Below are positions 14,755 to 58,673 of a stretch of 62,819 bases of DNA, piece by piece. The notes beneath the pieces were generated by a model. That model searched no databases and was not told where the DNA came from. It saw only the letters and a program-made list of their open reading frames with translations. Positions within the stretch are counted from its first letter, which is position 1; each line of letters opens with the position of its first letter. The stretch comes from a virus (Duplodnaviria > Caudoviricetes), in IMG/VR virus record IMGVR_UViG_3300038549_000020, positions 1 through 62,819 of that record; one strand, given 5' to 3'. The position numbers and the translations under genes are program-made.

Positions 14755-14854
14755 TGGCTCCGGCGGGATTCGAACCCGCGTCTCCCGATCCTGCTCGGGC
14801 GCCCTACCTCGGACTACCTCGTGCGGCGTGGTGCGTCCTCTGGGCTACGGTGCC
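14755..14854 (-). tRNA. tRNA-like element with a 37-nt D-loop and a 6-nt anticodon loop
   Basis: GGCACCG/CGGAGCC acceptor; GCCC/GGGC D-stem around 37 nt; CCCGA GCAGGA TCGGG; GCGGG TTCGAAT CCCGC. Confidence 0.6.
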
Positions 14855-14939
14855 AGCGATGGCCATGTGCTTGTTAGCCCGGCCACCAGGGCTATCGCGT
14901 CCCGCTCCATGCGGTGCTGGGGGCGGATCGGCCGCGTCG

Positions 14940-15013
14940 TGGCGAGGACGGGATTTGAACCCGTGACCTCTGGGTTATGGGCCCAGCGAGCTACCGAGCT
15001 GCTCTACCTCGCG
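14940..15013 (-). tRNA. tRNA-fMet(CAT) with C33
   Basis: CGCGAGG acceptor with 1:72 mismatch; three G-C anticodon-stem pairs; loop CCCATAA; TTCAAAT T-loop. Confidence 0.88.
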
Positions 15014-28814: not shown

Positions 28815-29032
28815 CCACCACCCTTGAGGATTCCCTGGCAGACGTGGCAGTAGTCGACGTCGCGGTTCGGGTACGGGCAGTCGGGGTGATGGCCCCGGAT
28901 GCCGTGCCGGATCGGCGCCGAGGTGAGGGGGCGCAGTGGGATGACCTCGGCCAGGCGTCCGGGTTCGCGGACCGCCGCGGCGGGCTCCTCGCCCCAGTCC
29001 TCCGGCCAGATGCGGCGTGCGGCGAGACTCAC
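28808..29032 (-). CDS. Small Zn-binding protein
   Basis: HHPDC...CHVC. Confidence 0.45.
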   Translation of the reverse strand: MSLAARRIWPEDWGEEPAAAVREPGRLAEVIPLRPLTSAPIRHGIRGHHPDCPYPNRDVDYCHVCQGILKGGGC

Positions 29033-30018: not shown

Positions 30019-30327
30019 CAGACATCCCCCGCCAGGGCGATGGATGACGTGGAAACGGCACGCTCCGTACGAGCGTGCCGGCGGTCTGGCATCATGAGAG
30101 CCAGGTCCTCTCCGGTGTGGTCGGATGAGGGCATCAGGCCGGTGAAGCGCGCCAACGCTTTGCCGGCCGCCCTGTTTGTCGCCCTGATCATACCTCGTGG
30201 GCTCATATTCCCCGTGCTCACTCGGGCCATGTCGCCACCCATTGATTCGAAGTGACATTCGCATTCATGTACAGCAATCCTCGAAAGCCTCCGACCCAAT
30301 CGAGCCGGAGGCTTTCCTCAACAGCAA

Positions 30328-36254: not shown

Positions 36255-37085
36255 ATGGGACTCATCGAGGAGTATCTTGACGAACTTCGGAGCATGGGCC
36301 GCTCCGAAGAGACCATCCGTTACACCCGGACCACCCTCCACCAGGCTGACCGCGCCGACCAGTTCGAACTCGGCCTATGCCTGGCCAGTCGCAACGAAGT
36401 TCAGGCATGGCTCAGACGCCCCACACGCGGGGGGAAGCGACTCGCCCCCAATACCCTCGCGAACAACTTCGACCGGTTGCGCGGATTCTTTCGCTGGGCC
36501 CATGGCCAGGGAAAACTTGATTGGGATCCGATGGCGTCCCTCACCCCACCAGGCAGACCGAAGGGCGTGCCGCGACCGGTCACCGATGACCAACTGGCGC
36601 TGATCGTCGCCAGCGTGCGGCACGCGATCCGGATCGCCGCGCTCCTGGCCGCGTGGGAGGGCATGCGCGCCGGAGAGATCGCCCGCATCGATCGAGAGGA
36701 CATCACCCCGGGTGGGGTGATCGTCTACGGCAAGGGTGGTCGTCAGCGGGTCGTGCCCACCCATCCGCTCGTGGCGGCCGAGGTGGCATCTCTCGCCCCC
36801 GGCAATCTCATGGCCCAGCTGGGAGTGCGGCCCGCAGCTCAGGCCGTGACATCCACCAGTGGGTATGAGTTCGGCAAGCTGGGCCTGGACGTCACCTTGC
36901 ACCAGTTGCGGCACTGGTTCGCCACGACATTGATCAACGCTGGGTGGTCGACCAGGGTCGTGCAGGTCCTCCTCGGGCACGCCTCGGTGGCGACCACGGA
37001 GGTGTACACCGAGGTTGCCGGCCACAATCTCGGCCAGGCCGTGGCGGGCCTGCCCAGTCTTGGACTGGACGGACCCGCCACATGA
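36255..37085 (+). CDS. int: Tyrosine integrase lacking an arm-binding domain
   Basis: GMRAGE, GKGGRQR, HQLRHWFAT, LLGHAS..TTEVYT. Confidence 0.92.
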   Translation: MGLIEEYLDELRSMGRSEETIRYTRTTLHQADRADQFELGLCLASRNEVQAWLRRPTRGGKRLAPNTLANNFDRLRGFFRWAHGQGKLDWDPMASLTPPGRPKGVPRPVTDDQLALIVASVRHAIRIAALLAAWEGMRAGEIARIDREDITPGGVIVYGKGGRQRVVPTHPLVAAEVASLAPGNLMAQLGVRPAAQAVTSTSGYEFGKLGLDVTLHQLRHWFATTLINAGWSTRVVQVLLGHASVATTEVYTEVAGHNLGQAVAGLPSLGLDGPAT

Positions 37086-41449: not shown

Positions 41450-43546
41450 ATGGATCACCGGGGTCGTATCCCAGTCATCGCGACAGTGGGCTGCCTGGCC
41501 GCACTCGGGGCGGCCTTGGTGGTCCGGACCGTGCCCGGCATCCCCTGGTGGGCGCCGGGTGCGGCTGGCGCCATCCTCGGCGCCTTTGCCGGCATCGTCT
41601 GCCTGGCCACCCTCATACCCCTGGCCACGGGCCTGCACCGGGTGGTGTGTGTGGCGGCCGTGGGCGCCTGGGCGTCCTGGGCGTCCTGGCACGGCATGAC
41701 ACCCCTGGATGTGGTGTGGCTGCTGCTGGCTGCCGCTGTGCTGGCACTCCTGGCGGTGGCGCTGCCGACCGTGGGTGAGACGGTCGGCCCCGAGGTGGCG
41801 CCCCGCGACCGGCGGCCGGATGAGGTGCGCGCCCTGGAGGACCTGCTACGGCGGCTGACCAAGCAGCCGACGATCAGCGTCAGCAGGATCGACCCGTGGG
41901 AGCGGCCAAAGGACGGACTTCGCGCCCACGTCGACCTACCCGAGGGCATGACCATCAAGGACCTGGCCGGCTACTGCGACCGGATCGCATCATCACCGGT
42001 GCTGCGGTTGCCGCAGGGCTGCGCCGTGCGGGCGCTGGACGGCGCCTACCAGTGCGAGGCGGTCCTGGACATCATGACCAGGGACTGCCTGGCTGACACG
42101 GTCGTGATCGACGAGCCGGCGACCCCGGCATCGGTCAGGGACGAATTCACTGTCGTGTGCTCACCGAGGGGTGAGCGGCTATCGATCTGCCTGCGGATCA
42201 TGTCCATGGTGGTTGGTGGCACTATCGGATCGGGCAAGACGACCTTGTTGCACCGGATCATCATGTGGCTTGCACGCTGCACGGACGCCCTGGTGTGGAT
42301 CATCGACATGAACGGTGGCGGGCTGGGTGCGCCCTGGGCGCAGCCCTACCTCGACGGCAAGACCGATCGGCCGACCGTCGACTGGATCGCAGACTGTGAG
42401 GAGGAGGCTGCGCTCATGACCGCGGTTGCCAAGGCCGTGCTCATCGACCGCAAGACTTCGCCGCAGGCCAGGGCCGCCCGGCGTGCGGCCAACACCAATG
42501 TGATGCCCGTCAGTGCCGACCTCCCGGCGATCATCATCATCGCCGACGAGGGTGGAGAGATCCGCCAGACCATCACCCTCCTCGGCCGACTCGCGGGCGA
42601 ACGGATCTCCTCGATCGCCCAGATCGGCCGGGAGACCGCCGGCCGGGTCGTGCTGTCCGTCCTCCGCGGTACGTCTGACCTGCTGGACAAGGGCTTCCGA
42701 GCGGTCGCGGGGCTCCGGTTGTGCCTGCGGATGGACGAAGAGGGGGAAGCCGACCACATCCTCGGCCGCAACCCTGGGCGTACCCCGCTGCTGCACGTCG
42801 GCTCGGCCTGGCTGTACCGATCCGGCACCGACTATCGGCCCATCCTCGGCCGAACGGTCGACATCCCTCCGGACGCCATCGAGCGGCACGCGCTGGCCAC
42901 CGCACGCCTTCGCCCCCAGTTGGACGAGCGTGGACAGCTCATCGCTTCCCAGGTCGATGCGGTCGCCGTCCTTGGTGGCATCAGGCCGGACAACATCCGG
43001 CACCTGCTCAGCCTGCCTCCGCTGGCCGATGCGGCGGCGGGCCACGCGTACAGCATGCGGTGGCGCCGGTATCGGGACCGGCTGGCGGCCCGCGACGGCA
43101 CCGGACCGGTCGAGCCGATCCGCCCAGCCGACTCACCCACGGTCGCCCCGGCGGGCAGCAGCATGGAGCGACTGCTCATGGCGACCGGGGTCACAGGTCA
43201 GGACGGGCCGGAGCCAGGAGCCACACCCGAGCAGATACAGAGGGCGGCCCTCGACGCCGTAGCGGTCGGTGACGAGTTCGCGGCGCTCACCTCAGCCGAG
43301 CATTTCGTCCGCGACGCCCAGGAGCCGCGGCCCGTCAGCGTCCCGGCCAGGGTCGAGCCCATCACAGGACGAGAGATGATCCTGGCCGTCCTGCAGGACG
43401 CCCACCCCGACGGGCTCACGGCCGGGCAGATCGAGACTCAGCTACGAGAGCGCGGCACACCATTGAGCCGTGGGCGGCTTTATGAGCTGCTGAGGGACAT
43501 GCAGTTGCCGAGGGATGGACAGCAGTACCTGTACCCTGAGCGCTGA
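41450..43546 (+). CDS. TraB-like FtsK/SpoIIIE DNA translocase
   Basis: N-terminal TMs, Walker A GTIGSGKT, WIIDMNGG, Walker B IIIIADE, C-terminal winged helix. Confidence 0.85.
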   Translation: MDHRGRIPVIATVGCLAALGAALVVRTVPGIPWWAPGAAGAILGAFAGIVCLATLIPLATGLHRVVCVAAVGAWASWASWHGMTPLDVVWLLLAAAVLALLAVALPTVGETVGPEVAPRDRRPDEVRALEDLLRRLTKQPTISVSRIDPWERPKDGLRAHVDLPEGMTIKDLAGYCDRIASSPVLRLPQGCAVRALDGAYQCEAVLDIMTRDCLADTVVIDEPATPASVRDEFTVVCSPRGERLSICLRIMSMVVGGTIGSGKTTLLHRIIMWLARCTDALVWIIDMNGGGLGAPWAQPYLDGKTDRPTVDWIADCEEEAALMTAVAKAVLIDRKTSPQARAARRAANTNVMPVSADLPAIIIIADEGGEIRQTITLLGRLAGERISSIAQIGRETAGRVVLSVLRGTSDLLDKGFRAVAGLRLCLRMDEEGEADHILGRNPGRTPLLHVGSAWLYRSGTDYRPILGRTVDIPPDAIERHALATARLRPQLDERGQLIASQVDAVAVLGGIRPDNIRHLLSLPPLADAAAGHAYSMRWRRYRDRLAARDGTGPVEPIRPADSPTVAPAGSSMERLLMATGVTGQDGPEPGATPEQIQRAALDAVAVGDEFAALTSAEHFVRDAQEPRPVSVPARVEPITGREMILAVLQDAHPDGLTAGQIETQLRERGTPLSRGRLYELLRDMQLPRDGQQYLYPER

Positions 43547-44525: not shown

Positions 44526-45389
44526 TCAATCTCCGGATAGCCGTCCGGCCACCTGGATGGTCAGCAGTGGGACCATCTCCGTGACCTGGGGCCCGTAGGG
44601 GTATTCCCGCCACCCGTACTCAGCCAGCTCGGCCAGCTGCTCCCCGTCGTTCCACCCGCCAGCAGGGCGAGCGGCGAGGACCTTGACGGGCTCCCCGTAT
44701 CCGTACACGTTCGCCTCGGTCGCTTCCCAGCCAAGGCCGGCAAGGATGGCGGTCGCTTCGGCCACCTCGTCCGGGGTGGCGTACTCCCGGGTGACCAAAT
44801 CCCATCCCTGGTAGGAGTCCATGTCCGGGATGGCGGTTGCCCTTAGGGCGTCGTGCAGATCCGTGCGGGCACGCTCACGCGCACCCCGGATGGCCATCAG
44901 TGCATCGCGCTGGGGACGCTCAGCCACGGAAATCTCCGCAGCCTCCATGAACGCCTTGAAGTACGCGCCCTCGTACCTCTCCCCGTCGACGATGGGGAAT
45001 GACCCCGTGATGGTCCACTCGTCGCCACGCCTGCTGGCCAGGATCCGGGACCCTGACGAGGCTGAGGCGAACTCCAGGCGGCTCACGGTTTCCGCTGTGG
45101 CTACCAGCCATGCCCCATTGAAGTCCTGGTCCTTGATCCAGGGGTGGTTATGCCAGTCCCCCTCCAGGTCAAATGACCGGTCACCGACGGAGTGATCCGC
45201 GACCAGCACAACATCGTTGTCCGCAATCCACTCCAGGCCGTCCAGAACCCGGGTTGCCGGGGCCTTCCGGAGTGCGGCCAGGACTTCTTCCGGATCACAC
45301 TCGCAGGCGTTGAACCCGCCGAGAGCCGTAGTGACGTGCTTCCATGTGGCGCCCTTGATCTCCAGGGTGCTGTATTCCTTGATCTGCAT
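44526..45389 (-). CDS. Acidic hypothetical protein (anti-defence candidate)
   Basis: GGAGA RBS; first gene after an operator-flanked promoter. Confidence 0.7.
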   Translation of the reverse strand: MQIKEYSTLEIKGATWKHVTTALGGFNACECDPEEVLAALRKAPATRVLDGLEWIADNDVVLVADHSVGDRSFDLEGDWHNHPWIKDQDFNGAWLVATAETVSRLEFASASSGSRILASRRGDEWTITGSFPIVDGERYEGAYFKAFMEAAEISVAERPQRDALMAIRGARERARTDLHDALRATAIPDMDSYQGWDLVTREYATPDEVAEATAILAGLGWEATEANVYGYGEPVKVLAARPAGGWNDGEQLAELAEYGWREYPYGPQVTEMVPLLTIQVAGRLSGD

Positions 45390-45447
45390 GGCTATCTCCT
45401 TGTTCGTTGCCCCGTGGGGCGTTGGGTGTGGTTCCCCCCGGCTGTAA

Positions 45448-45490
45448 TTTCCGGTACCTAAAACTCTAGCACACTTTCCGGTACCGGAAA
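45448..45490 (-). promoter_or_regulatory. Extended -10 promoter flanked by two TTTCCGGTACCGGAAA-type operators
   Basis: Sites at 45448 and 45475; TGCTAGAGT between them on the minus strand. Confidence 0.8.
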
Positions 45491-45495
45491 CCGTG

Positions 45496-46011
45496 TCACT
45501 CTTCCGTGTCAGGCGGCAGCAGCGTCACGCTGCCGGCGCAGGCGTCACAGAAATCCTCGGTGGGACCCGGCCCACCACAGACGATGCACACGCCGAGCAC
45601 CCGAGCGTGAGTCCCGATCGGCAGCACGGCCGCCGCCCGGTTGCGCCGCCCGGCACCGTCCGGGACGACCAGCACCCACACGTCCGGGTCCGAGTCGTCC
45701 AATCCCTGGGCGCGCAGCCACGCCCAGGCGGCGTCGTCGAGAGAGTGGCTACCCAGCCACTCCGCCAACTCCTCACCCTCGGCGTCCGGGGATGCACCCC
45801 GGAACACCTCCAGCGTGAGCATGGCCTGGTCTCCCGACACCTCCCAGTAGCGGCGTGCGTCATCCCGCAACCCCTGGAGGACGTAGCGGCGGATCACCTC
45901 GGAGCGGTCCACGGCCAACTGGGCCGCCCGCTCCTCCAGATCTGCCACATCCTCTAGCGGCAAGCGGGTTTTGATCTCTGGCCCAATGGGGGGCCGACCG
46001 GTCTTGGCCAT
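45496..46011 (-). CDS. RHH (CopG-like) domain fusion protein
   Basis: GRPPIGPEIKTRL...DRSEVIRRYV; C-terminal CxxC..CxxC. Confidence 0.75.
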   Translation of the reverse strand: MAKTGRPPIGPEIKTRLPLEDVADLEERAAQLAVDRSEVIRRYVLQGLRDDARRYWEVSGDQAMLTLEVFRGASPDAEGEELAEWLGSHSLDDAAWAWLRAQGLDDSDPDVWVLVVPDGAGRRNRAAAVLPIGTHARVLGVCIVCGGPGPTEDFCDACAGSVTLLPPDTEE

Positions 46012-46031
46012 GCGTCTCTACTCCTTGGATG

Positions 46032-46391
46032 TCAGACCGCGAGAGCGGCGAGGGTGGTGTACCGGGTGGTGGCTGGACGGAACAGGCCCCGGGCCCAGCG
46101 GTAGACGGTGGAGACGTGTACACCGACCGCCGCGGCGATGGCGCGGACGCTCATGCCGGCCTGGCGGAGGATGGCGATGATGCTGACCGCGTCCTGGTGG
46201 GTGGCGGCTTCTGCCGCTTCCCGCTCCGCCTGTGCCGCGTCCTGCTCGGCCTGGCGGATCTGGGTTTCCCATCCCGCCGGGTCCTTGGCGATCTGGGAGA
46301 AGGTGGCCTCTGTCAGGCCAGCGGACCATGCGCGATCCCGCAGGCTGTTGATCCGCTGGCGCTGGCTGCTGGTGATCCTCTGGTAGGCCAT
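46032..46391 (-). CDS. HTH regulator
   Basis: GMSVRAIAAAVGVHVSTVYRWARG. Confidence 0.8.
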   Translation of the reverse strand: MAYQRITSSQRQRINSLRDRAWSAGLTEATFSQIAKDPAGWETQIRQAEQDAAQAEREAAEAATHQDAVSIIAILRQAGMSVRAIAAAVGVHVSTVYRWARGLFRPATTRYTTLAALAV

Positions 46392-46405
46392 GTCCTCACC
46401 CCTCG

Positions 46406-46448
46406 TTTCCGGTACCTGAAATCCTAGCATGGTTTCCAGTACCGGAAA
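46406..46448 (-). promoter_or_regulatory. Second promoter with the same paired operators
   Basis: TTTCCGGTACCTGAAA (46406) and TTTCCAGTACCGGAAA (46433) flank TGCTAGGAT. Confidence 0.8.
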
Positions 46449-46566
46449 TGGAGGTCACCCGAACGGGGACGTGGCGCTGCCTATACGCCCTGAGCTGCGG
46501 CGTTTCTGTCTGCTCATGGCTCATGCCATAATGGGGCAACACCCACTACAGGAATGAGGGCAACCA

Positions 46567-46806
46567 ATGACTGATGTCCTGGTCGAGCTCGACAACCGAC
46601 GCCGAGCATCCCTCGGCAGACTCGGCAACCCCGAGCACCGCTACTACCTCGGCCATACGGAGCCGGACGGCAGGATCGTCCTGGTTCCGGCCGTGGTCAT
46701 GCCGGAGGCGGAAGCCCGACTTCGGGGCAACCCCGAACTGCTCGGGCAGATCGAGCACACCGTCGCCGAACCGGCAAGCCGGGTGCGGCGCGCGAGACGC
46801 CAGTAG
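46567..46806 (+). CDS. AbrB/MazE-like small protein
   Basis: ELDNRRRASLG...DGRIVLVP. Confidence 0.6.
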   Translation: MTDVLVELDNRRRASLGRLGNPEHRYYLGHTEPDGRIVLVPAVVMPEAEARLRGNPELLGQIEHTVAEPASRVRRARRQ

Positions 46807-46995
46807 GAGTCCTGACGCTCGGCCTCGCCTGGCCCGATACGCCACAGCGCCCCCGGTCATCCCGGGGGCGATGGTCGTTTGAGCCCGGCCCCGTGATGGG
46901 GCCGGGAAGCACCCGCCTGGCGGGCGTGGTCGTGTCGCGACGTGTCGAGGGTAGCTGGGGTGGCTTGTCGTGGGGCGACACGTTCGAGTGATGCT

Positions 46996-47040
46996 GTTTG
47001 TGATGTAGAAACAACGTGCTAGAGTTTATGCATCACAAAC
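46996..47040 (+). promoter_or_regulatory. Promoter with inverted 17-bp operators
   Basis: GTTTGTGATGTAGAAAC and GTTTATGCATCACAAAC flank TGCTAGAGT. Confidence 0.75.
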
Positions 47041-47058
47041 AAGCGAACGGAGAGAGCG

Positions 47059-47664
47059 ATGAGCCGCAACTACACCTACACCGTCACGTTCCCCAGCGAC
47101 GAGAAGGCCGCATTCGTCGCCGACATCCTGCGTCCCTACGGAATCGAGCAGCCCAAGCGCGAGGGCGGCCAGCTCATCCTGAGCAAGGACGCCCTGGAGA
47201 TCCTCGCCGAACACGGCGAGGACAACGACGGCTGCTACATCGACGGCCAGATCTGGGTCTCCGGAGACGGATACGCCGTCACCCGCAATACCGGACGGCC
47301 CAGCGTCGGCACCAGCGGGTCAACCCGCATCACGGCAACGCTGGACGCGGATGTTCTCGCCCGGCTCGACCAGGCCGCTTACGTGTTCAGCATCGACCGC
47401 TCTGCGGCAGTCAGGCGAGCGATCGAGATGTGGCTCGGCTCCCTGTACACCGTGGAGATCCAGAGCTGGAGTGAGAGCGCGCGGGCATGGATGGCCCTTG
47501 CCCCCGCCGAGACCGTCAGCGCGGCCAGCGCGCGCGATGCCGCCGAGGACGTGGCGGATGACCAGAACATCGCCGAGGGTCCGGACTGGCGCGTCTGCGC
47601 TTGGGCCGGTGCCGACCCGGACACGGGCGGGACGCCCGACCACATCTTTGAGCCCGAGAGTTAG
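47059..47664 (+). CDS. Three-domain protein with central RHH
   Basis: GRPSVG..RITATLD..VLARLD....DRSAAVRRAI. Confidence 0.7.
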   Translation: MSRNYTYTVTFPSDEKAAFVADILRPYGIEQPKREGGQLILSKDALEILAEHGEDNDGCYIDGQIWVSGDGYAVTRNTGRPSVGTSGSTRITATLDADVLARLDQAAYVFSIDRSAAVRRAIEMWLGSLYTVEIQSWSESARAWMALAPAETVSAASARDAAEDVADDQNIAEGPDWRVCAWAGADPDTGGTPDHIFEPES

Positions 47665-47694
47665 TCGACCAGCGAACGCCTCCACGCAAGCGCA

Positions 47695-47721
47695 GCGCCC
47701 CACCTCCACGGGTGGGGCGCT
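47695..47721. terminator. Hairpin between convergent genes
   Basis: GCGCCCCACC...GGTGGGGCGC. Confidence 0.6.
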
Positions 47722-47730
47722 GTTGTGCCA

Positions 47731-48822
47731 TCACTGCCGGTCGCTCAGGTCCGTCCTGGCGCCCGGCTGCCGATCGCGGTGGATCCACGGCCAGATCGTT
47801 CCCGGCCACCATCCGCGTCGCCCACCCACGAACGCGTCATAGGCCGGCGCCTGCCCCCGGCTCACATACCCGACCAGGGTCGTGGCCTTGATGCCCAGGA
47901 TCCCGGCCACCTCAACCACTCCGAGAGGCACCGCGTCATCCAAGTGCCCGTCCGCTACCTCCCGCAGGTACGGAGGATCCTGCTGGCGCTTCCCCGGATC
48001 CCGGCGGGCGCCACACCGCGCCGTGCGGCCCGACACGAACCCCCCGGCGCCAGACCAACCGATCCCCAGCAGGGCCGGCACAGCGGACGCCGGCATGGGG
48101 GTCTCCCACAGCAGCCAGTCACACACCAGCTCGGACCGGTCGGCCCCGGTGCGCCGGTAGTGCCAGCCCACCGCCCCCCGGCAGGGCCGATCCTGGTCGA
48201 CGGCGCCAGCCACCTGGTGGGCGGGGACGTCGCGGGCCGGCTGGCACGGCAAGCCCATGACCGCCAACCAGTCCAACCCCGGCGAGGCGGACGAGCCGGT
48301 GTCGGACTCGCCCCGCAAGATCCACAACCCGGCGGGGTAGTCGCGAGTCAGGCCGAGACCGGGACCACAGATGGCCTGGTCGAGTAGGCCAGGATCAGCC
48401 CGCAGACATCCGACCATGGTGGTCAGCATGCCCCGGACGGTTTGCGCCGCGTGCGGCCAGACCATGGGGTGCAGCAGCCTACTGGGGGTCAGGAGGGCTG
48501 ACGCCCACATCTCGGATCCGGCCGGGGGTGGCTGGGCGGCCAGGTGGCGACCCCGGGCACCCCACCAGTCGCGGCCGGGCGGGGGGAACTCCGCAGGGCA
48601 GTCGGGGAGGACCCCGCCGTCAGGGATCCGGTCGAGAGTCAGCTCGCGGATCGCCTCGGCGGCCTCGTCGGTGGTGGATGGCCCGGCGTCGAGGATCAGC
48701 CGCCCGTCGTCGAGACTCCAGCGGACCAGGAGCTGCGGCCAGCGTTGGGCCAGGACGCGGATCGCGCCGAGAGCGGCGAGCCAGCCGTGGGGGGTTGTGC
48801 CGTCCAGGTGGAGTGTGGTCAT
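47731..48822 (-). CDS. Type I-G Cas8g2 (Cas8u2)-like protein fused to a C-terminal HTH
   Basis: LDGTTPHGWLAALGAIRVL, IPDGGVLP..PAEFPPPG, QTVRGML, PGLDWLAVMGLP, WLLWETPM....VPALL; C-terminal EVAGILGI...GYVSRGQAP...PGARTDL. Confidence 0.72.
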   Translation of the reverse strand: MTTLHLDGTTPHGWLAALGAIRVLAQRWPQLLVRWSLDDGRLILDAGPSTTDEAAEAIRELTLDRIPDGGVLPDCPAEFPPPGRDWWGARGRHLAAQPPPAGSEMWASALLTPSRLLHPMVWPHAAQTVRGMLTTMVGCLRADPGLLDQAICGPGLGLTRDYPAGLWILRGESDTGSSASPGLDWLAVMGLPCQPARDVPAHQVAGAVDQDRPCRGAVGWHYRRTGADRSELVCDWLLWETPMPASAVPALLGIGWSGAGGFVSGRTARCGARRDPGKRQQDPPYLREVADGHLDDAVPLGVVEVAGILGIKATTLVGYVSRGQAPAYDAFVGGRRGWWPGTIWPWIHRDRQPGARTDLSDRQ

Positions 48823-49241
48823 GCCGTGCTGCCAGGTCGGGTGGCCGTCCAGAGTACGGCCGCGAGGAGGACGGCGACGACGGCTGTGGGGAGGATGCCG
48901 GCACCCTGCGTGATCATGGTGGCCATGCCCGCACCGGAGATGACCAGCGCGACCGGTGTGGCGTACCGGATGGCGTGCTGGCGGAGGGGGATGGGTGGGT
49001 CGGCGACCAGGTGGAGTGGCCACTGCTGGCCGTCGGAGGCGTGGATGGTGGTGGTTCCGTCGTCGGCGATGGTGATGTGGCCGTCCTCGCCGTGCTCGCG
49101 GTGGGCGATGAGCCAGGCGACCTGCTCCCGGCTGATCTGGACGATGCCGGGCTGGGTTGCCCGGATGCCGGGTCCGGTGAGCCAGGATGGGGTGCCGCTG
49201 GGGCCGAAGTCTGCGATCTACACCCCATGTGTCACTGACAC
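48819..49241 (-). pseudogene. Membrane protein ORF interrupted by TAG at codon 8
   Basis: Long open frame with GC-rich third positions and 2 C-terminal TMs; ATGA coupling to the cas8-like gene; in-frame TAG at 49218-49220. Confidence 0.45.
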
Positions 49242-49254
49242 GATTGGGGGACTA

Positions 49255-49291
49255 CTCACACTTTACAAGGCTTTCCTTGTATAGTGGTGGC
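49255..49291. promoter_or_regulatory. Divergent promoter with TACAAGG/CCTTGTA inverted repeat
   Basis: TTTACA...TATAGT ahead of a leaderless-type ATG at 49292. Confidence 0.7.
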
Positions 49292-49702
49292 ATGACACAG
49301 ACAGCGCCCATCGTCCTCAACCACCACGACGACCGCCCAGTCGTCGGCGGACCGGCCGCACTCATCAACGCATCCCTGGGCGGCGCGGCGCCGCTCACCA
49401 TCACAGGCAAGAAGGCCACTGGCGACATCGTCTGGCTCGCCCCGGTCACTGAGCGAGTGTGGCGCGACGACGCGATCACCGTCGAAGATCACGCCATCGC
49501 CTGGACGATCAGCCACCCCGTCCATGGCGAGATCGCGTACGCCTACATCGACATGTCCCGTCTCGACAGGGCTCCCCAGGTCTCCGAGCTGACTCGGGCG
49601 CTGCGGGCTGCGGACGCTGCCGCGTACAACGCCACGATGGCACAGGCCGCCAAGGCCGCACCGAGCTGCGACAACTGCGGCGACTGCCCGCAGTGCTGCT
49701 GA
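49292..49702 (+). CDS. Hypothetical protein with CxxCxxCxxCC tail
   Basis: First gene after the promoter. Confidence 0.6.
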   Translation: MTQTAPIVLNHHDDRPVVGGPAALINASLGGAAPLTITGKKATGDIVWLAPVTERVWRDDAITVEDHAIAWTISHPVHGEIAYAYIDMSRLDRAPQVSELTRALRAADAAAYNATMAQAAKAAPSCDNCGDCPQCC

Positions 49703-49712
49703 GGAGGTAGGC

Positions 49713-50204
49713 ATGGCCACCAGAGACGGCTGGACACCACTCCAGATCGCGTGGGCTGACTACAGCCACGCCGATGCCGTTCACCACCAGGCCGCCAACC
49801 TCGACCTGATCGAGGCCAAGGCCGAGTACGACGAGGCCAAGCACCGCCTTGGCGAGGGCATGCTGACGCCCAAGGAATGGCAGGAGGCTCAGGACGCCTG
49901 GCAGGCGGCCGTTGACCGGATCGCCACCACCGAGCAGGCGCTCCGTCACGCGGAGCGCGCTTACTGGGCCGAGAAGTGGCTCACCCGCCGACAGGTAGCC
50001 GACCTCGTCTCCGCTCTGACCGGCCGAGGCATCAACCCGGACACCTGGTCCGGGTACGTCACCAGGGGACAAGCACCAGCACCCGATGGGCGCGACGACA
50101 CCAATCACCCGTGGTGGTCGGAGCTGACCGTCAGGGACTGGGTCGCCTCCCGCCCCGGCCAGGGTGCGCGGACGGGACGCAACAAAGGAAATAGTCCAAA
50201 ATGA
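49713..50204 (+). CDS. Helical domain plus HTH (same HTH family as the Cas8-like fusion)
   Basis: LTRRQVADL...GYVTRGQAPAPD...RPGQGART. Confidence 0.75.
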   Translation: MATRDGWTPLQIAWADYSHADAVHHQAANLDLIEAKAEYDEAKHRLGEGMLTPKEWQEAQDAWQAAVDRIATTEQALRHAERAYWAEKWLTRRQVADLVSALTGRGINPDTWSGYVTRGQAPAPDGRDDTNHPWWSELTVRDWVASRPGQGARTGRNKGNSPK

Positions 50205-50986
50205 TCGATGCTGAATTTGCCGCCGCACTTGCCAGACTTCGTGGACCACTCGACTTCTCCTGGATCCCCGTCCAGGATGGCGGCGGCTGGTATCTCGCCA
50301 AAGCGTGGTCTCGGGATCCCAGCGAACTGGACCGCTACGACACAGAGGCGGAGGCACAGGCCGCCGCTGACGCGGAGAACGCCGACGCACAGACGCTGCT
50401 TGACGCGCTGATGGCGCGCGTCGAGGAACACGTCCCGGGCGACTACCGGGACGGGTACACCCGCGAGCAGTACGAAACCGCATGTTCCGTGCTCGGCGCA
50501 ACGCCAGTCAGCGACGACGACCTTCGCCGCGGTTCATCGGCGGTCATCCTCGTGCCCGAATACACACATCGGCACGTCGTGTACGCCCAGCTGTGCCACG
50601 GGCGGACCGTCGGAATCAAGGCCGAGGACCAGACCGCCGACGACCAGATCGCAGCAGCCCTCGACAGCGCCGGCCTGCTGCGAAAGCGCATGTACACCCG
50701 CGAGCAGTACGAGGCCGCCTGCCAGATTGCCGGCATCGATCCCATCGCCGACGATGAGGTCGCCACGTGGTTGAGCGTTCACTACCTGCCGCCGTTCGTT
50801 GACCGCACCCCGATGGAGCTTCGGAGGCAGACCCTGGCCGACCACCGGCTGGCGGGATTGCGTCGCGAGGCCAAGAAGGAGGGGGAGGCGTGCGACAACT
50901 GCGACCGGCCGATCGCGCCCGGCGAGGGCATGAGCGCGAACCTCGGCATGGCCTGCTCGCTCGGTTGCTACCAGGAAATGAGCTGA
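50201..50986 (+). CDS. Protein with a duplicated YTREQYE domain and a C-terminal Zn finger
   Basis: YTREQYETAC and YTREQYEAAC; CDNC...CSLGC. Confidence 0.65.
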   Translation: MIDAEFAAALARLRGPLDFSWIPVQDGGGWYLAKAWSRDPSELDRYDTEAEAQAAADAENADAQTLLDALMARVEEHVPGDYRDGYTREQYETACSVLGATPVSDDDLRRGSSAVILVPEYTHRHVVYAQLCHGRTVGIKAEDQTADDQIAAALDSAGLLRKRMYTREQYEAACQIAGIDPIADDEVATWLSVHYLPPFVDRTPMELRRQTLADHRLAGLRREAKKEGEACDNCDRPIAPGEGMSANLGMACSLGCYQEMS

Positions 50987-50987
50987 T

Positions 50988-51791
50988 TTGAGCACTGATC
51001 TGAAGCGTGCGGCGCGGGAGGCGTTCGCCCGCGCCGACCAGCTCACCACCCAGATGGAGCGCCGCTACCCCACCGCGTGGCGGGAACTTGACGGCTTCCG
51101 CGTCAACCCGCCGCAGCCCTGGCCGGAGTGGTGCCTACTGCCCATGGCCGCATCAGCGGCCGTCTGTACCGACTTCGCCCCGATCGAACAGGTGCGACAC
51201 CCGCTGACCCCTGTCCCGATCGCCACGATGGCGGCCGTCTACGCCTGGCGGTACAGCCGGTCGGTGTACCTGTTCCACCCCGACCTCCGGCGCAGGCTGA
51301 CGGGCACGGTGCCCGATCTGCCTGACCTGGATCTCCTCGCGGGCATGCCGGACTGGTGTCTGGTGGTCCCCACGATGCATCCGGAGTGGCCTGGTGCAGG
51401 GCTGTGGGCGCACTTGGAGGCCGACGCCAACACCAGACGCCCGGAACTGCGACTCCTCGACGACGACGGCACCAACGACCCGGTGACGATCCCGGTCTAC
51501 CTGGACCGGCCCACGCTCACCGAGGCGCTCGCGGACTTCCGCGCCACCGCGCGAGCGTCCGGTGTCCGTGGTGGTCAGATCACCACCGGGCAGGATGTCC
51601 ACGGTGGAGCCCTGGACGAGTGGGCGGCGTCGATGGCTGATCGGGTCGATCAGATGATCGCCCTCGTGGCCTACCTGTGTCGCCCTGAGGCGGACATCAG
51701 GGAGATGGGGCGCACGTGGGTGCGGCCTGGACCTCGGGCACGGTCGCGGCGACGAGGGAGAACCGTGTGGTTGGTCGGGTACGGCGACTGA
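50988..51791 (+). CDS. AcrVA2/FinQ-like protein, C-terminally shortened
   Basis: YPTAW..LD.FR...WPEWCLLP, AWRYSRSVY.F, MPDWC, GLWAHL, YLCRPEADI, VWLVG. Confidence 0.7.
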   Translation: MSTDLKRAAREAFARADQLTTQMERRYPTAWRELDGFRVNPPQPWPEWCLLPMAASAAVCTDFAPIEQVRHPLTPVPIATMAAVYAWRYSRSVYLFHPDLRRRLTGTVPDLPDLDLLAGMPDWCLVVPTMHPEWPGAGLWAHLEADANTRRPELRLLDDDGTNDPVTIPVYLDRPTLTEALADFRATARASGVRGGQITTGQDVHGGALDEWAASMADRVDQMIALVAYLCRPEADIREMGRTWVRPGPRARSRRRGRTVWLVGYGD

Positions 51792-53827: not shown

Positions 53828-56038
53828 CTATCTCGCGTATCTGGCCTGGTGGAACAGTTGGATGGGTGCGCCTGCCGCATGCGCCTTGACCACGCCGTTG
53901 ACCGAACGGGTCACCGTGAACGTCTGTGGCGAGGTCGTGTCGGCGACGTCCGTCACGGTCATGCGCTCCCCGCCGATGATGATGTCGAAGGGCAGGCTCG
54001 CGGCGTCGTCGGTCGCCAGAACCCACCTCGGCCCGGTGAACGTCACGGACAATGACACATCCGCTGAGGTGATCGCGGTGGTCAGAGTCGACCCGTCGGA
54101 CTCATAGCGACCCAACGCCGACGAGTCGTACACCCCGACGTGCGTCCACGCCCCGGCCGGCGTCGCGTTATACGAGATCGTCCAGGTGTACGCGCCGATC
54201 CGCTCCGTATACCCCTGGATCATGAGGCCGGTGTCGTCGGGTGGCATCCACGACGGCGGATTGGTGAGGGTGACCACCGAGCCAATGTCCAGGGCGATCG
54301 CGGCGGCGGTGGCGACCGGATCGGCGCGCCACACCGATCGGTGCAGGCCGATCTCCGCGCGGGGGTAGCGCGTGGCGTCCCAGGTGCCCAGATGTCGCAG
54401 CCACCCGGTGACGTCGGGCAGCTGGCTGTCGTCGTCCAGGTACAGCCTCGGGGTGCTGTCGTACACCCCGACCCCGTCCGGATCGGTACGGGGATCGTTG
54501 ATGTTGAGTGGCCCCGATGTCTGGGTGGACCGCCACGATCCGCCGTCGATGCGGGTGACCGTGATGTCGTTGGCGATCGCGTCGTCGTCGTCCTCGGGCT
54601 CCAGCCGGCCGGAGAGCGCGTTGGCTGAATAGTCCCAGGTCGGACCTGTCGTGTTGTACATGCTGTCTCGGGTGCGGTAGGCCAGGCCCAGGCCTAGGCG
54701 CGGCTCGTAGAGGATCCCGCCGTCGGTGTCGGCGCAGTCGTCCATCAGGTCGATGAGGGTGCTCTCCTCCTGGCGACCCATGGCGGCGGTCGCGCTGGCC
54801 GCACCGTCGAGCTGGAGATGCACCCCATCCTCGGCACACAGTCGGATCATCCGGGCGGCGGCCAGCTCGCCCCAGTAACCCCCCATGGCCTCGTAGGTGC
54901 TGGTGGCGACCGTGTCGGCATAGACGGCGATGTGTCCACACGAGGCGGATTTCATCGACGTGTCGGGCACGTTCTGGACGGAGATCTGGACGACCGAGCC
55001 GGGCACGAAGGCATCGGTGTCGGTTCCTCCGGAAACGTCGTCCAGGAGCACCTCCATGGTCGCGTTCGCCCCGACTTGGTCCAGGGTGACGCGCAGGTGG
55101 TGCCACTCGCCGTCCAGGGGCTCCTCGCCGGAGATCACCACGGATACCGAGCCTCCGCCCGAGTCGGCCTCGGTACCGGTCACGGTGATCGTGTCGGTGA
55201 CCCCGTCCTCGAAGTCGATGACGAGCGTCCAGGTCGCCCATTCCGTCGTCCACTTGATGGGTGCGTACTGGGCGACGGCGATGTCGGTGGTGTCGCCCAG
55301 GAAGATCAAATCCAGGGTCCAGCTATCTCCTGTGGACCCCGACAGGAAAGCTGTCATGACAGGCTCGATCGCCGTGACGGCGTACACAAACTCCGGCAGG
55401 GTCGACCGCGCGCCATCCGGACCGGTGATCTTCGAGAATGCGAAGCTCCCGTACGCGGTCACCCCAGGCTGCCCGGACACCACCGATCCACCGACGCTGG
55501 TGGATGTCCCATCATCCAGCGGCCAGTAGGCCACCGGACTACGGGCGACGATGGAGCGCTCCAGGGCCGAGCGCTTGCCCCGCTGACCCTGGCCGAGACG
55601 GCGCTTGATCCCTGCGGCCTCCAGGGGCACGTAGACATCACTGCCACTGGTGTCCCAACGCTGCGGCCAGCTGGACACCTCCCCCTCGAATCGCTGGTCA
55701 GACCCGATGGTCACCCTGATCGGGGTGTTGCGGCCAATCAGCCCGTAGTAGGGGCTCGACGGGTTGCGCGGCGACATGTAGCCGTCGCGGTTGTCGAGGG
55801 TGAGCGCGAGGGTGCTCGGGCCGAGAGTGGACTGCCCATTGCTGCGTCCCCGGGTGATGGTGATCCCGTCGGACTCCCGAACCCTGCTGGTGACGTCCAC
55901 CCACCCACCGTCGACGAAGATCTCGACCCTGTGGTTGATGTGGCCGTCCGCATCGAAGGCGGACACGCCGGATCCGCCGAGGAGGGTTGGCCTGCCAGCC
56001 AGCTCCCACCCGGCCCACAGGGGGGCGAGTGACCTCAT
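53828..56038 (-). CDS. Minor tail hub protein with LamG-like insertion
   Basis: ITRGR...LTLDNRDG.MSP.NP.SPYYG, PVAYWPLDDG. Confidence 0.75.
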   Translation of the reverse strand: MRSLAPLWAGWELAGRPTLLGGSGVSAFDADGHINHRVEIFVDGGWVDVTSRVRESDGITITRGRSNGQSTLGPSTLALTLDNRDGYMSPRNPSSPYYGLIGRNTPIRVTIGSDQRFEGEVSSWPQRWDTSGSDVYVPLEAAGIKRRLGQGQRGKRSALERSIVARSPVAYWPLDDGTSTSVGGSVVSGQPGVTAYGSFAFSKITGPDGARSTLPEFVYAVTAIEPVMTAFLSGSTGDSWTLDLIFLGDTTDIAVAQYAPIKWTTEWATWTLVIDFEDGVTDTITVTGTEADSGGGSVSVVISGEEPLDGEWHHLRVTLDQVGANATMEVLLDDVSGGTDTDAFVPGSVVQISVQNVPDTSMKSASCGHIAVYADTVATSTYEAMGGYWGELAAARMIRLCAEDGVHLQLDGAASATAAMGRQEESTLIDLMDDCADTDGGILYEPRLGLGLAYRTRDSMYNTTGPTWDYSANALSGRLEPEDDDDAIANDITVTRIDGGSWRSTQTSGPLNINDPRTDPDGVGVYDSTPRLYLDDDSQLPDVTGWLRHLGTWDATRYPRAEIGLHRSVWRADPVATAAAIALDIGSVVTLTNPPSWMPPDDTGLMIQGYTERIGAYTWTISYNATPAGAWTHVGVYDSSALGRYESDGSTLTTAITSADVSLSVTFTGPRWVLATDDAASLPFDIIIGGERMTVTDVADTTSPQTFTVTRSVNGVVKAHAAGAPIQLFHQARYAR

Positions 56039-56547
56039 CACTCAGCCCAGCGGATCCAACACCGCATGTCCACCCCGGACGTCGGAGTGGTCGCCCGGAC
56101 GCGGACGAACTTGCTAACCGGAATGATCGGCCGCGAGTCGGGCATCCACTGATAGGAGTAGTGCGAGGGTGATTCGCTGGTGGTCATCGACAGCGCCACC
56201 ACATCGAAGACCCGTGTCGCCGTGGTGTTGTCCTCGGCGGAGGAGGTGTAGCCGGTGGCCTCCGTGCCCAGGGTGAGCAGAGACGCGGGTGCGCCAGGGT
56301 CGGTGGGCTGCACCCCTGCGGCCACATGCGCGGTGACGGTGGCGGCCACATCGGTTTGCAGCAGCTCCACCACACCATCGGCACCTGGGATGTCGTCGAC
56401 GGTGAATCCCCATGCGATCAGGGTGATCTGCCTGGTCGACGGGGTCGCCAGCTGCAACATGGTCTTGATCGATGTCCCGGTGGTGACGGCGGCCTGGGCT
56501 GCCGTGGTCGGCATCGGTCCGTTCCAGGCCGTATAGATGTGCGGCAC
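56038..56547 (-). CDS. Minor virion protein
   Basis: Beta-rich; in the tail operon. Confidence 0.6.
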   Translation of the reverse strand: MPHIYTAWNGPMPTTAAQAAVTTGTSIKTMLQLATPSTRQITLIAWGFTVDDIPGADGVVELLQTDVAATVTAHVAAGVQPTDPGAPASLLTLGTEATGYTSSAEDNTTATRVFDVVALSMTTSESPSHYSYQWMPDSRPIIPVSKFVRVRATTPTSGVDMRCWIRWAE

Positions 56548-56555
56548 TATGCCCC

Positions 56556-58673
56556 CTACACCTTGATGTTGAGCAGGTCGGGTGACCCGCCCCGTTTCTT
56601 GATCGCGATGGCCAGGATGTTGAGTAGCAGGTCACCCAGTTGCGAGCCGTCCGAACCAATGACCAGCGTGGATCCGCCACCGCCTCCGCCGCCCCCGGAC
56701 GCGACCGAGCCGCCACCTCCACCACCGCCCATCATCTGTTTGGTCTCCTGCGCGGTGGACACCCAGCGTGGCTTGGTCTCCCAGATCAGCTCGGGGCCCT
56801 CCTCGCCGACGAGGACCGGACCGGGCTTGGTCCAACCACCCTCGGCGTTGTGTGTGTAGCCGGATCCATAGAGGGCCTGCTCCCGCGCGTCCTGCCCCTG
56901 ATAACGCACGTAGTGCCACTCATTGATCACGTAATTCATCGTCTTCGTGCCAGTGGGCAGACCGAGGATTCTGTTGATCAAGGCCTGGACCTGCTCGCGG
57001 TCATATCCCATGGCGGCGGCCTGGTCGAGGATCGCCGCGATGACAGCGTTCTGCGCTGCGGCGGCCCGATATGACGCCCCGGCAAGATCCCCTTGGGCGA
57101 CAGCCGCCGCATACTCGGCCTCACCAGCTGCGACGGCGGCCCCGACAAGATCCTGAAACATGCCAATGTTGTCGCGACCCTTGGCTGTCGAGTCGTCCAG
57201 ACTCCTGCCGTGCTCACGGGTCGACTCCGCAAGATTGTCGATGCCCTCCTCGAAGGCGAGATGCGCCTCAAAGGCGGAAGCGAACGAATCCTGGAGATCT
57301 TTCGTGGCGTCGGCGGCTTCCTTCTCCGCGTCCGCCAGGGCCTTCGCCGATTCGGCGGCCACACTCAAACCGGCTGATGCGATGGCCGTGGAGTCGCCCA
57401 AGCTGCGGAAATGCTCATCGCTGTCGACGAATCCCGTGGTGAGCATGTCCCACGCATCCATCAGGGGGCTGATGGCCTGCCCGAGCGGTCCCAGCAACGT
57501 GTCGGCGAGCCGACCCCCCGACATCTCATTGAGATCACTCAATCCGCTGTACAGCTTGGACAGGACCTCGATCGTCTCGCCCAAACCGTCGACCACATCG
57601 GCGGTTCCGTCGACCAGGTCGCCAAAGAACTTCGCGGCCCCGGGGCCAGCGGACGCGATCGAGTCGGAGAAGTCCCCGATCGCCTCCCCGAGCTGGGGAA
57701 GGTCACCCGCCACCGACTCGATGAACGGTGCCGATGCGGCGAACATCTGTCGAAGCCCAGGACCCGCCTCCCGCACCATGCCGATCAGCCCCTTGGCCAG
57801 GGGATCCACGGCCTTGGCCAGGGGAGCGAACATGCCGGAAAGATCCAGCTGGCCGATCTCACCACGCAACTCGTCCAGGGCTGTGACCACGGGTTTCTTG
57901 AATGCCGACCCGATCGAGATCAACTCCTCGCTCAGGGTGGCGCTGAACACCCCGGCGGCCTGCTTGACCTCTGGCGACTGGGCCGCCCCCGCGATGCCGG
58001 CGGCCAGACCTCCCGCTCCGGCGGCACCCAGCAGGCCGGCGGAGATGGCGGCGCCGACAGCGGGAGCCATGACTACCCCGATGGCGGCCCCGGCGGCGAC
58101 GACATACGGAGACCGGGCGGCACCGGCGATACCGTCAACCATCTGCCTGCCGAGGCTTTCCCCGGCCTCTCTGCCCGTGTTGGCGATCGTCTTCTTCAGC
58201 TTGGTTAGTTGGCTGATGACGGCCTGATCGGACTTGATGTTCGGCAGCAGATCGCGGTCACCGGTCCGGTCGAGCTGCTTGATCATCTCAAGGTGGCGCG
58301 CTTTGACCTTCTCCAGGGCCGCAGTGAGCCGATCGGAGTCCTTGCCGGCGGCCGACAGCTCATCGCCGAGTGCCTGTACAGCGGGGGCCGCTTTGCGGGC
58401 CGTGGCGGCAACACCCTCGACCCCTTCGGCCGCGGGCTTGACCTTCTTGCCCGCCGCACCCAGTTTGCCCAACTGTTCGGTCAGGCCCTCTGTGGCGTCG
58501 TCGGCCTTGCGTGCCGTCTCGGCCGCGGTCGAAAAGGCCAGGGCAAGGTTCGCGGTCGCCTTGGTCGCCTGCCGGTTGATCGCACCGAGGGAACGCTGGA
58601 TCGACGCGGCGGTCTTCCCGAAGTCGTTGTCGCCCTTGACGTGGATCTGGATGTCATTGGCCACCGTCGTCAC
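56556..58673 (-). CDS. Tape measure protein
   Basis: Long Ala/Gly helical ORF after the chaperones; C-terminal AEGG....VLVGEEGPEL. Confidence 0.85.
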   Translation of the reverse strand: MTTVANDIQIHVKGDNDFGKTAASIQRSLGAINRQATKATANLALAFSTAAETARKADDATEGLTEQLGKLGAAGKKVKPAAEGVEGVAATARKAAPAVQALGDELSAAGKDSDRLTAALEKVKARHLEMIKQLDRTGDRDLLPNIKSDQAVISQLTKLKKTIANTGREAGESLGRQMVDGIAGAARSPYVVAAGAAIGVVMAPAVGAAISAGLLGAAGAGGLAAGIAGAAQSPEVKQAAGVFSATLSEELISIGSAFKKPVVTALDELRGEIGQLDLSGMFAPLAKAVDPLAKGLIGMVREAGPGLRQMFAASAPFIESVAGDLPQLGEAIGDFSDSIASAGPGAAKFFGDLVDGTADVVDGLGETIEVLSKLYSGLSDLNEMSGGRLADTLLGPLGQAISPLMDAWDMLTTGFVDSDEHFRSLGDSTAIASAGLSVAAESAKALADAEKEAADATKDLQDSFASAFEAHLAFEEGIDNLAESTREHGRSLDDSTAKGRDNIGMFQDLVGAAVAAGEAEYAAAVAQGDLAGASYRAAAAQNAVIAAILDQAAAMGYDREQVQALINRILGLPTGTKTMNYVINEWHYVRYQGQDAREQALYGSGYTHNAEGGWTKPGPVLVGEEGPELIWETKPRWVSTAQETKQMMGGGGGGGSVASGGGGGGGGSTLVIGSDGSQLGDLLLNILAIAIKKRGGSPDLLNIKV

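Follow-up and report, generated by a model that had tools for sequence, protein, structure and literature searches.

A virus-encoded relative of the small Cas8g with a C-terminal winged helix-turn-helix: a candidate Cas-derived anti-CRISPR aimed at type I-G

What would a tailed phage do with a homologue of the large subunit of a type I-G CRISPR effector when its sequence holds no other part of such a system? This question is raised by one gene of the virus record IMGVR_UViG_3300038549_000020 (Duplodnaviria; Caudoviricetes), of which all 62,819 nucleotides were analysed and are called the window below. The gene lies at 47731-48822 on the reverse strand and its product is called P0001. An earlier note, made from the sequence alone, had described it as a solitary Cas8-like protein fused to a helix-turn-helix (HTH), captured from a host and acting as a decoy of host Cascade under its own autorepressor. 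The observation itself was confirmed, as P0001 is a full-length homologue of the small Cas8g variant with an added HTH on a phage record. With a probability of roughly one half, P0001 is a diverged small Cas8g encoded by the virus which would act as an anti-CRISPR (Acr) by subunit mimicry, aimed at type I-G.

The gene and its product

47731-48822, reverse strand: Cas8g-like-HTH gene, including the stop codon; product P0001, 363 aa (open reading frame with translation, G+C content at third codon positions (GC3) 0.87, AlphaFold2 model)
47947-48822, reverse strand: domain resembling the small variant of Cas8g (NF049934), aa 1 to about 292 (profile and fold matches)
47734-47934, reverse strand: C-terminal winged HTH (wHTH), aa about 297-363 (phrog_597 and fold matches)

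The stop codon was found at 47731-47733 and the start codon was set to the ATG at 48822. These limits agree with those given in the earlier note and are supported twice, since GC3 drops from 0.87 in the frame 47731-48822 to 0.58 in the upstream extension 48823-49023, and the relatives all begin at the same N-terminus (MTT...L-P-A-L/V-x-G). A longer reading frame starting from the GTG at 49023 was rejected for its GC3 of 0.58 and because homologues begin at the ATG at 48822. For P0001, AlphaFold2 with an alignment of 77 sequences gave a model with a predicted local distance difference test (pLDDT) of 88.4 and a predicted template modelling score (pTM) of 0.83.

Homology of the N-terminal domain to the small Cas8g

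The profile NF049934 was matched by P0001 in hmmscan with an E-value of 4.6e-14, aa 6-254 corresponding to profile positions 4-259 of 299; the PADLOC profile for Cas8g, PDLC01514, covered aa 6-45 only (E 3.9e-5). When a profile of the 14 closest relatives of P0001 was compared with a profile of nine typical family members using hhalign, the phage clade and the CRISPR clade were aligned over 243 columns with a probability of 99.95% and an E-value of 4.3e-38. An exhaustive phmmer search with P0001 returned 64 proteins at E ≤ 1e-3 (P0001 itself counted) and 15 at E ≤ 1e-30, and NF049934 was matched by 26 of 28 aligned sequences (best E 7.6e-95). The consensus of the 77 aligned sequences has G19, W185, L186 and W220 as invariant positions, and the five motifs by which the earlier note had recognised a Cas8 are conserved blocks of the family, all present in this consensus.

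Searching the Protein Data Bank (PDB) with Foldseek gave 8b2x, a type I-G effector, as the top match (E 9e-3, which is modest; probability 0.99; TMq 0.45), followed by 7tr6_C (type I-A) and 8fcj_I (type I-B CRISPR-associated transposon), so that the three best matches are all Cascade entries; which chains of 8b2x, 7tr6 and 8fcj are Cas8 follows our own reading of these entries. A structure search of the ESM Atlas yielded clusters of 304-329 aa with TM 0.74-0.75 over aa 1-293, two of which bear the name of the family. The domain is thus homologous to NF049934 over its full length, far beyond what chance would give, has the same fold, and has the fold of a Cas8 N-terminal domain. The earlier note had named a profile and a structure comparison with Cas8g as checks, and both returned matches. 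In a search by sequence, neither P0001 nor its profile had a match in the PDB.

The small Cas8g family in host type I-G loci

A pattern scan of GTDB representatives resulted in 117 confirmed relatives, all from Actinomycetota, and 80 of their loci were kept. According to tblastn, cas3g is located directly upstream of the family gene in 78 of the 80 loci, and the two others are on contigs which end at that point. Also detected were cas5/6g (csb2, 75 loci), cas7g (73), cas4/cas1 (47) and cas2 (42). PADLOC recognised Cas7g, Cas5/6g, Cas3g, Cas8g, Cas4/1g and Cas2g in the operons of two loci, L014 and L015, in which the Cas8g call is the family protein of about 315 aa (E 1.7e-25 and 2e-28); the two operons contain no other candidate for the large subunit. 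In most host loci, the stop codon of cas3g overlaps the family ATG (ATGA) and, to judge from this overlap, the small Cas8g is translationally coupled to cas3g.

The tie to Cas3g is also found at the protein level. NF049934 carries the NCBIfam name 'type I-G CRISPR-associated protein, Cas3-extension family', and in 13 longer proteins (814-1389 aa, mostly named Cas3g by their sources) the C-terminus comprises 94% or more of the family. Fusions of the family to the C-terminus of Cas3g, about 1300-1390 aa in length, were found in Nocardiopsis, Streptomonospora, Haloactinospora and Lipingzhangella, and in one Nocardiopsis genome the family match lies inside a single open frame of 1437 aa.

Shangguan et al. 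(PMC9638904) distinguish three size variants among type I-G large subunits and further state that Cas3 is stably held in the studied effector via Cas8g, even free of target, and that the N-domain of Cas8g touches Cas7.1, Cas7.2 and the CRISPR RNA (crRNA). The size variants were linked by two genuine Cas8g1/Csx17 proteins:

L087, 2976-5612, reverse strand: canonical Csx17/Cas8g1 protein, NF049934 over the first ~70 residues
L088, 1838-4258, reverse strand: canonical Csx17/Cas8g1 protein, NF049934 over the first ~70 residues

Both match NF049934 at an E-value of about 1e-6 and score 378 and 392 bits with TIGR04113. The shared N-terminus makes the small protein akin to the canonical type I-G large subunit. 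A further type I-G Cas8g variant (PADLOC PDLC01374, E 5e-75) with a weak NF049934 match (E 9.8e-11) is encoded at 776-2587 on the forward strand of L086, a contig of 2.6 kb.

A separate clade in phage contexts

A tree of 77 sequences was computed from the Cas8g-like columns with IQ-TREE (LG+C20+F+G4, quick mode, support from the Shimodaira-Hasegawa-like approximate likelihood ratio test (SH-aLRT) only, midpoint root). It took in 49 of the 80 host loci; loci with a stop in the tblastn range or a partial range were left out. P0001 was placed in a clade of 17 rows, all metagenomic sequences, with an SH-aLRT of 100 which contains none of the 49 CRISPR-locus rows, and all 49 are on the other side, which also has a support of 100. 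The phage clade is therefore a clade of its own, parted from the CRISPR-locus members by long, fully supported branches, and the word 'captured' in the earlier note, suggesting a recent theft, is not borne out. The ten clade members that were looked up are metagenome singletons.

The clade is conserved in its own way. Among 14 of its sequences, which share 36-49% identity, 31 columns are invariant, and motifs such as PHAAQT, ASPGRDWL and DPPYL stand in place of the motifs of the host proteins. These clade-specific columns argue for proteins that are maintained, not decaying, and already point to purifying selection. That P0001 is a functionless, decaying remnant of a transferred cas gene is accordingly hardly credible: its low identity to host Cas8g and its score under the family cut-off would suit a remnant, but the frame is intact with a GC3 of 0.87, the structure model is confident and the 17 members have invariant columns of their own. 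Compared with host small Cas8g (NF049934; PADLOC PDLC01514), fold, length and conserved motifs are the same over aa 1 to about 292 of P0001, whereas P0001 is outside a cas operon, in a separate clade, below the cut-off, and has an extra wHTH and clade-specific motifs.

For clade members, four metagenome contigs were fetched (L001-L004). The genes needed for comparison are:

49292-49702, forward strand: first gene of the rightward operon of the window, 136 aa, C-terminal CxxCxxCxxCC (GC3 0.85; syntenic with the Cas8g-like gene in L002)
50988-51791, forward strand: phrog_6160-like gene (phrog_6160, E 1.2e-13; syntenic with Cas8g-like genes in L004)
L004, 910-2061, reverse strand: orphan homologue of the N-terminal half of Cas8g1/Csx17, 383 aa, convergent with the Cas8g-like gene

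In a survey of neighbourhoods, as the earlier note had proposed, no cas gene was found in L001-L004 by tblastn with four cas queries, none of which matches the window either, and three of the contigs (L002, L003 and L004) carry either phage genes or genes that the window also has; L001 is too short for context. L003 contains homologues of lysin A and of a tape-measure protein. In L002, a homologue of the window gene 49292-49702 follows directly after the Cas8g-like gene (blastn 88.7% over 53 nt and 91.7% over 36 nt), and the product of 49292-49702 has no match to any family. A 361-aa protein of L004 matches the window gene 50988-51791 with 36% identity over 207 aa (tblastn, E 1.4e-17).

The 383-aa protein of L004 matches TIGR04113 (E 5.9e-7), PADLOC Cas8g (E 1.6e-7) and residues 71-393 of a genuine Csx17 (BLASTP, 31% identity, E 1e-24). 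Judged by these matches, it is a truncated N-terminal half of the other type I-G large-subunit variant, on a contig without further cas genes. From their sequences, the two adjoining large-subunit mimics in L004 look like an anti-I-G cluster. The window has no counterpart of this Csx17-like gene.

Relatives were sought in further collections. The INPHARED phages contained none (megablast of 47000-50300, tblastn of P0001 and of P0002, the product of 49713-50204), and pattern scans of IMG/VR with two alignments, one of them of the close clade, and with the 383-aa protein gave no confirmed relative, though the record of the window itself may be hidden from such scans. Scanning GTDB representatives with the close-clade pattern produced 96 pattern hits, of which 0 were confirmed. 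None of the 50 viral matches listed for BFVD covers the Cas8g-like domain; 52-210 columns were aligned, nearly all to the HTH.

No other CRISPR parts in the window

Six-frame searches of the 62.8 kb found no Cas7g, Cas5/6g, Cas3g or Csx17, and no CRISPR-like repeat array is present. The earlier statement that other cas genes and an array are missing is borne out for the sequenced part, the record being linear with a completeness estimated by CheckV as 79%. P0001 is neither downstream of nor fused to cas3g.

Since the record is incomplete and P0001 has the full length of a host Cas8g, the protein might serve a phage-borne or hybrid CRISPR system as its functioning large subunit, with the remaining components encoded in the missing ~21% or supplied by the host. 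This is very improbable: the window lacks the partner genes and an array, the relatives in L001-L004 have no cas genes beside them, and the gene, which is found right after cas3g in 78 of 80 host loci, here follows an unrelated small frame.

The winged helix-turn-helix and other DNA-binding extensions

49713-50204, forward strand: P0002, 163 aa, same wHTH family at its C-terminus (phrog_597, BLASTP to P0001)

The C-terminus of P0001 (aa 300-360) matches phrog_597 ('DNA binding protein') with an E-value of 6e-9; the score for Pfam HTH_17, 15.7 bits, is under the cut-off of 27. Fold matches are MerR, BldC, Xis and HTH proteins of actinophages with probabilities of 0.8-1.0. By profile and model, the C-terminus is a predicted MerR/excisionase-like winged HTH, and the HTH of the earlier note is upheld. 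The same holds for its second statement, that the gene 49713-50204 encodes the same HTH family: P0002 also matches phrog_597 (E 3.3e-13) and is 43% identical to the HTH of P0001 over 49 aa (BLASTP, E 9e-6).

The wHTH recurs at the C-terminus of three other relatives (P0006, P0007 and P0020) and at the N-terminus of P0008. Two further proteins with this domain at the end, P0024 and P0032, are basal branches of the CRISPR-side clade. Different C-terminal tails in P0004, P0009, P0011, P0016 and the L003 protein look HTH-like when their sequences are read, and Pfam showed no significant DNA-binding family in ten relatives (best HTH_28, E 0.029, and KORA, E 0.025). Altogether, DNA-binding-looking extensions at the N- or C-terminus were counted in 10 or more of the 17 members of the clade, and about 7 of 17 are without a clear one, some perhaps being truncated. 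The wHTH of P0006 and P0007 (aa about 292-352) is weakly similar to PADLOC's MADS-system profile 'mad1' (E 9e-5 and 1.6e-3), which is probably a generic HTH similarity.

Recurrent fusion to differing DNA-binding modules, at either protein end, is among the grounds for a hijack of the host machinery, in which the Cas8g-like domain would hold host Cas3g (or Cascade) and the HTH would target DNA, leading to crRNA-independent degradation or silencing of DNA of the host or of rival elements. This sharpens the alternative offered in the earlier note, a conversion of host Cascade into a DNA-binding regulator. The natural Cas3g fusions of the family point to a hijack as well, as does the stable presence of Cas3 in the type I-G effector via Cas8g without a target, described in PMC9638904. 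Against it, no target site is evident beyond a single palindrome (see below), an HTH does not supply the R-loop single strand that is normally required for loading Cas3, and the idea is inferential throughout; we regard it as improbable. A narrower form, in which P0001 would be a crRNA-independent loader or tether of Cas3, the swappable DNA-binding domain parking or firing captured Cas3g at sites chosen by the phage, is a slightly longer shot still. If true, a CRISPR nuclease of the host would be turned on the host or on rivals, or held inert on phage DNA, and P0001 would be a protein-guided, virus-evolved offshoot of a type I system.

Proposed action as an anti-CRISPR

The reading of P0001 as an anti-CRISPR, to which we return here, would proceed as follows. 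During early infection, or from a prophage, P0001 would compete with host Cas8g for its partners. Contested would be Cas3g, the translationally coupled or fused neighbour of the host protein, and/or the backbone of Cas7g, Csb2 and crRNA, and the resulting assemblies would fail to recognise targets or to license Cas3g. The wHTH could serve in autoregulation of expression, similar to anti-CRISPR-associated (Aca) proteins, or could anchor the sequestered partner on DNA. Because of the coupling or fusion of the host counterpart to Cas3g, and of the N-terminal motif that it has in common with Csx17, competition for Cas3g and/or the backbone would be the most economical mode of action; given the name of NF049934 and the natural Cas3g fusions, Cas3g is likely at least as good a candidate for the partner as Cascade. 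A complex prediction of aa 1-295 with the C-terminal 650 aa of the Cas3g of L020, an arbitrary host protein used as a stand-in, gave no answer (score 0.00) and is evidence neither for nor against.

P0001 has every feature by which Cas-derived inhibitors are recognised at the sequence level, being encoded by a virus, outside a cas operon or array, and in a clade of its own. A decoy would fit the published precedent of AcrIB3 and AcrIB4 (see below) and, from the sequence side, would also fit the distinct non-CRISPR clade, its phage contexts and the adjoining second orphan Cas8g in L004. Support for the interpretation of the earlier note is partial: the solitary, phage-borne homologue of the small Cas8g with an HTH, and the paralogous HTH across the divergent region, stand, the recent capture is not supported, and the autorepressor is doubtful.

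Several points weigh against an anti-CRISPR function. P0001 scores 52.8 bits with NF049934 as a protein and 47 bits in six frames and does not reach the curated cut-off of 65, genuine members scoring 289-305 bits. Its identity to CRISPR-locus members is only 22-31%, low enough for a possible loss of partner binding. DNA-binding-looking extensions are present in most of the clade, so the main job could, to judge from these sequences, equally be on DNA. The small variant is uncommon: when 401 genomes were sampled from the class, 6 scored above the cut-off. CRISPR spacers of the 80 host loci, compared with the window by blastn-short, gave matches at chance level only, the best candidate (L067) lying outside its array, so that a type I-G system is only presumed for the host. 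Finally, the record is only about 79% complete.

Local anatomy and a regulatory role

48819-49217, reverse strand: upstream open frame, 132 codons, unannotated (GC3 0.83-0.94 along its full length)
49259-49286, no strand: AT-rich palindrome CACTTTACAAGG-N4-CCTTGTATAGTG in the 72-bp divergent control region

Upstream of the Cas8g-like gene, an open frame runs from 49217 to 48819. Its TGA (48821-48819) shares bases with the start codon of the Cas8g-like gene (ATGA), there is no ATG, GTG or TTG before 48926, the C-terminus of the product is hydrophobic, and no homologues were found. A non-canonical start or an assembly error may account for this frame. The earlier note had assumed a divergent promoter shared by both directions. 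A divergent control region does exist; yet not all of the 469 bp upstream are promoter, as they include the open frame 49217->48819 that reaches into the start codon, and the non-coding gap between the divergent genes is 72 bp (~49220-49291).

The palindrome is unique in the window, was matched by 0 of 100 shuffles and ends 6 nt before the rightward ATG (49293). The rightward gene looks leaderless, with a TATAGT 7 nt ahead of its ATG, and a scan of 47500-49800 for consensus σ70 promoters and terminators gave 0 sites. P0002 is encoded by the second, not the first, gene of the rightward operon. A related palindrome (core TTACA-N8-TTGTA) is located at 737-763 of L002, just upstream of the rightward gene's homologue, which encodes a small protein with the same terminal CxxCxxCxxCC; the Cas8g-like gene of L002 is upstream of the palindrome, co-directional and behind a hairpin. 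As the palindrome in L002 precedes the rightward homologue and not the Cas8g-like gene, the operator would be tied at least to the rightward operon, and an Aca-like autorepressor acting on 49255-49291, as the earlier note had it, is doubtful. P0001, P0002 or both could bind the putative operator.

These observations also bear on the reading that P0001 is a phage transcription regulator without any CRISPR action, in which an exapted Cas8g-like domain (DNA-contacting, oligomerising or sensor) and the wHTH would control the divergent early or immunity region. The block is rich in genes for DNA-binding proteins, namely ribbon-helix-helix (RHH) proteins at 45496-46011 and 47059-47664, an HTH_38 protein at 46032-46430, and P0002; the unique palindrome lies in the 72-bp divergent region; and extensions of DNA-binding appearance occur in no fewer than 10 of the clade's 17 members. 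Moreover, the N-domains of Cas8 proteins in general read DNA, in the form of the protospacer-adjacent motif (PAM). Left unexplained are the retention of the whole Cas8g fold with the N-terminal motif common to Csx17, the second, different orphan Cas8g beside the L004 relative, and the about 7 of 17 clade members (some perhaps truncated) that have no clear DNA-binding extension. A regulator is rather unlikely, yet the strongest of the rival readings, and would be an unusual exaptation of the Cas8 fold.

Near the Cas8g-like gene, 44526-47664 is a dense block of small genes for DNA-binding proteins with two RHH proteins, one HTH_38 protein and an antitoxin-like protein of 79 aa (phrog_19414).

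Relation to known systems

AcrIIA1-type anti-CRISPR proteins carry a fused HTH autorepressor, and Aca proteins are a related arrangement. In common with these, the HTH of P0001 is joined to the candidate inhibitor (or is beside it) and a palindrome is present in the promoter region; in contrast, the HTH of P0001 is a MerR/excisionase-like winged helix and the conserved palindrome seemingly belongs to the rightward operon. AcrIF3 mimics the helical bundle of Cas8f and traps Cas2/3. It is thus likewise a viral protein imitating the Cas8 surface for Cas3 recruitment, but it is a structural mimic without sequence homology, whereas P0001 shows true homology over the whole protein.

The closest precedents for the proposed action come from type I-B in Listeria. 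According to Katz et al. (bioRxiv 10.1101/2023.06.24.545427), the Cas5 homologue AcrIB3 inhibits type I-B and assembles into Cascade, and AcrIB4, a homologue of the C-terminus of Cas8b, inhibits type I-B and blocks target binding; each forms an old clade of its own, and 358 orphan viral cas genes are counted in IMG/VR. P0001 resembles both in being a homologue of a Cascade subunit on a mobile element, in a non-CRISPR locus and a clade of its own, with a proposed action as a faulty subunit. It differs from AcrIB3, a Cas5, and from AcrIB4, which corresponds to no more than the final 90 residues of Cas8b, in being a whole type I-G large subunit with an HTH and a putative activity. The text of Katz et al. 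makes no mention of Cas8g, Cas8u, Csx17 or Actinobacteria, and the supplementary table of the 358 genes may or may not list the present record. CasPRs, as described in bioRxiv 10.64898/2026.02.23.707548, are DNA-binding Acrs of Bacillota silencing cas transcription; they contain CapR and AP2 domains and are not homologous to Cas proteins. P0001 shares with them that a DNA-binding phage protein is proposed to counter CRISPR, and differs by its Cas homology.

In the literature, no type I-G anti-CRISPR was found by name, the word-start matches to 'acrig' being unrelated. The concept of a Cas-derived viral inhibitor is already published; as far as could be searched, the type I-G, whole-Cas8, HTH-fused case apparently is not. 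Should P0001 prove to be an anti-CRISPR, type I-G would have its first one, which would also be the first derived from a whole Cas8 large subunit, and P0001 would offer a natural probe of the coupling of Cas8g and Cas3g in the minimal type I-G effector. With its small clade, changing DNA-binding partners and the tandem pair of Cas8g1-like and Cas8g2-like genes, it would be a compact case of the conversion of a cas gene to counter-defence. Type I-G is under development for genome editing in bacteria, including bifidobacteria.

The virus record and its other genes

9325-10656: large terminase
3028-4377: major head protein
53828-58673: tail-region proteins
29029-30264: replication initiator
41450-43546: FtsK-like protein
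36255-37085: tyrosine recombinase

The terminase shares 63% identity with its counterpart in Thermobifida phage P1312 and 58.5% with the one in Streptomyces phage Dagobah, and the tail protein matches 33 phage records, 32 from Streptomyces and one from Thermobifida. G+C is 63-72% across the record. On the terminase and tail matches and the high G+C, the record is assigned to a tailed phage of a filamentous actinomycete; its source appears to be a wetland metagenome. The host range of the Cas8g family, seen in Streptosporangiales, Streptomyces and other Actinomycetota, agrees with this assignment.

Three further regions were recorded. A 657-aa protein is encoded on the reverse strand at 10656-12629, adjoining the terminase gene; its C-terminal two thirds resemble phage DNA methyltransferase or ParB-like proteins (≤ 33% identity). 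A 953-aa protein (5110-7971, reverse strand) has periodic repeats of 9 and 27 nt at 5.9-6.7 kb, which by eye look like the collagen-like Gly-X-Y repeats of a tail fibre. Two tRNA genes were predicted by ARAGORN at 14619-15013 on the reverse strand; the first is a tRNA-Met, and the other was called with an odd anticodon of two bases.

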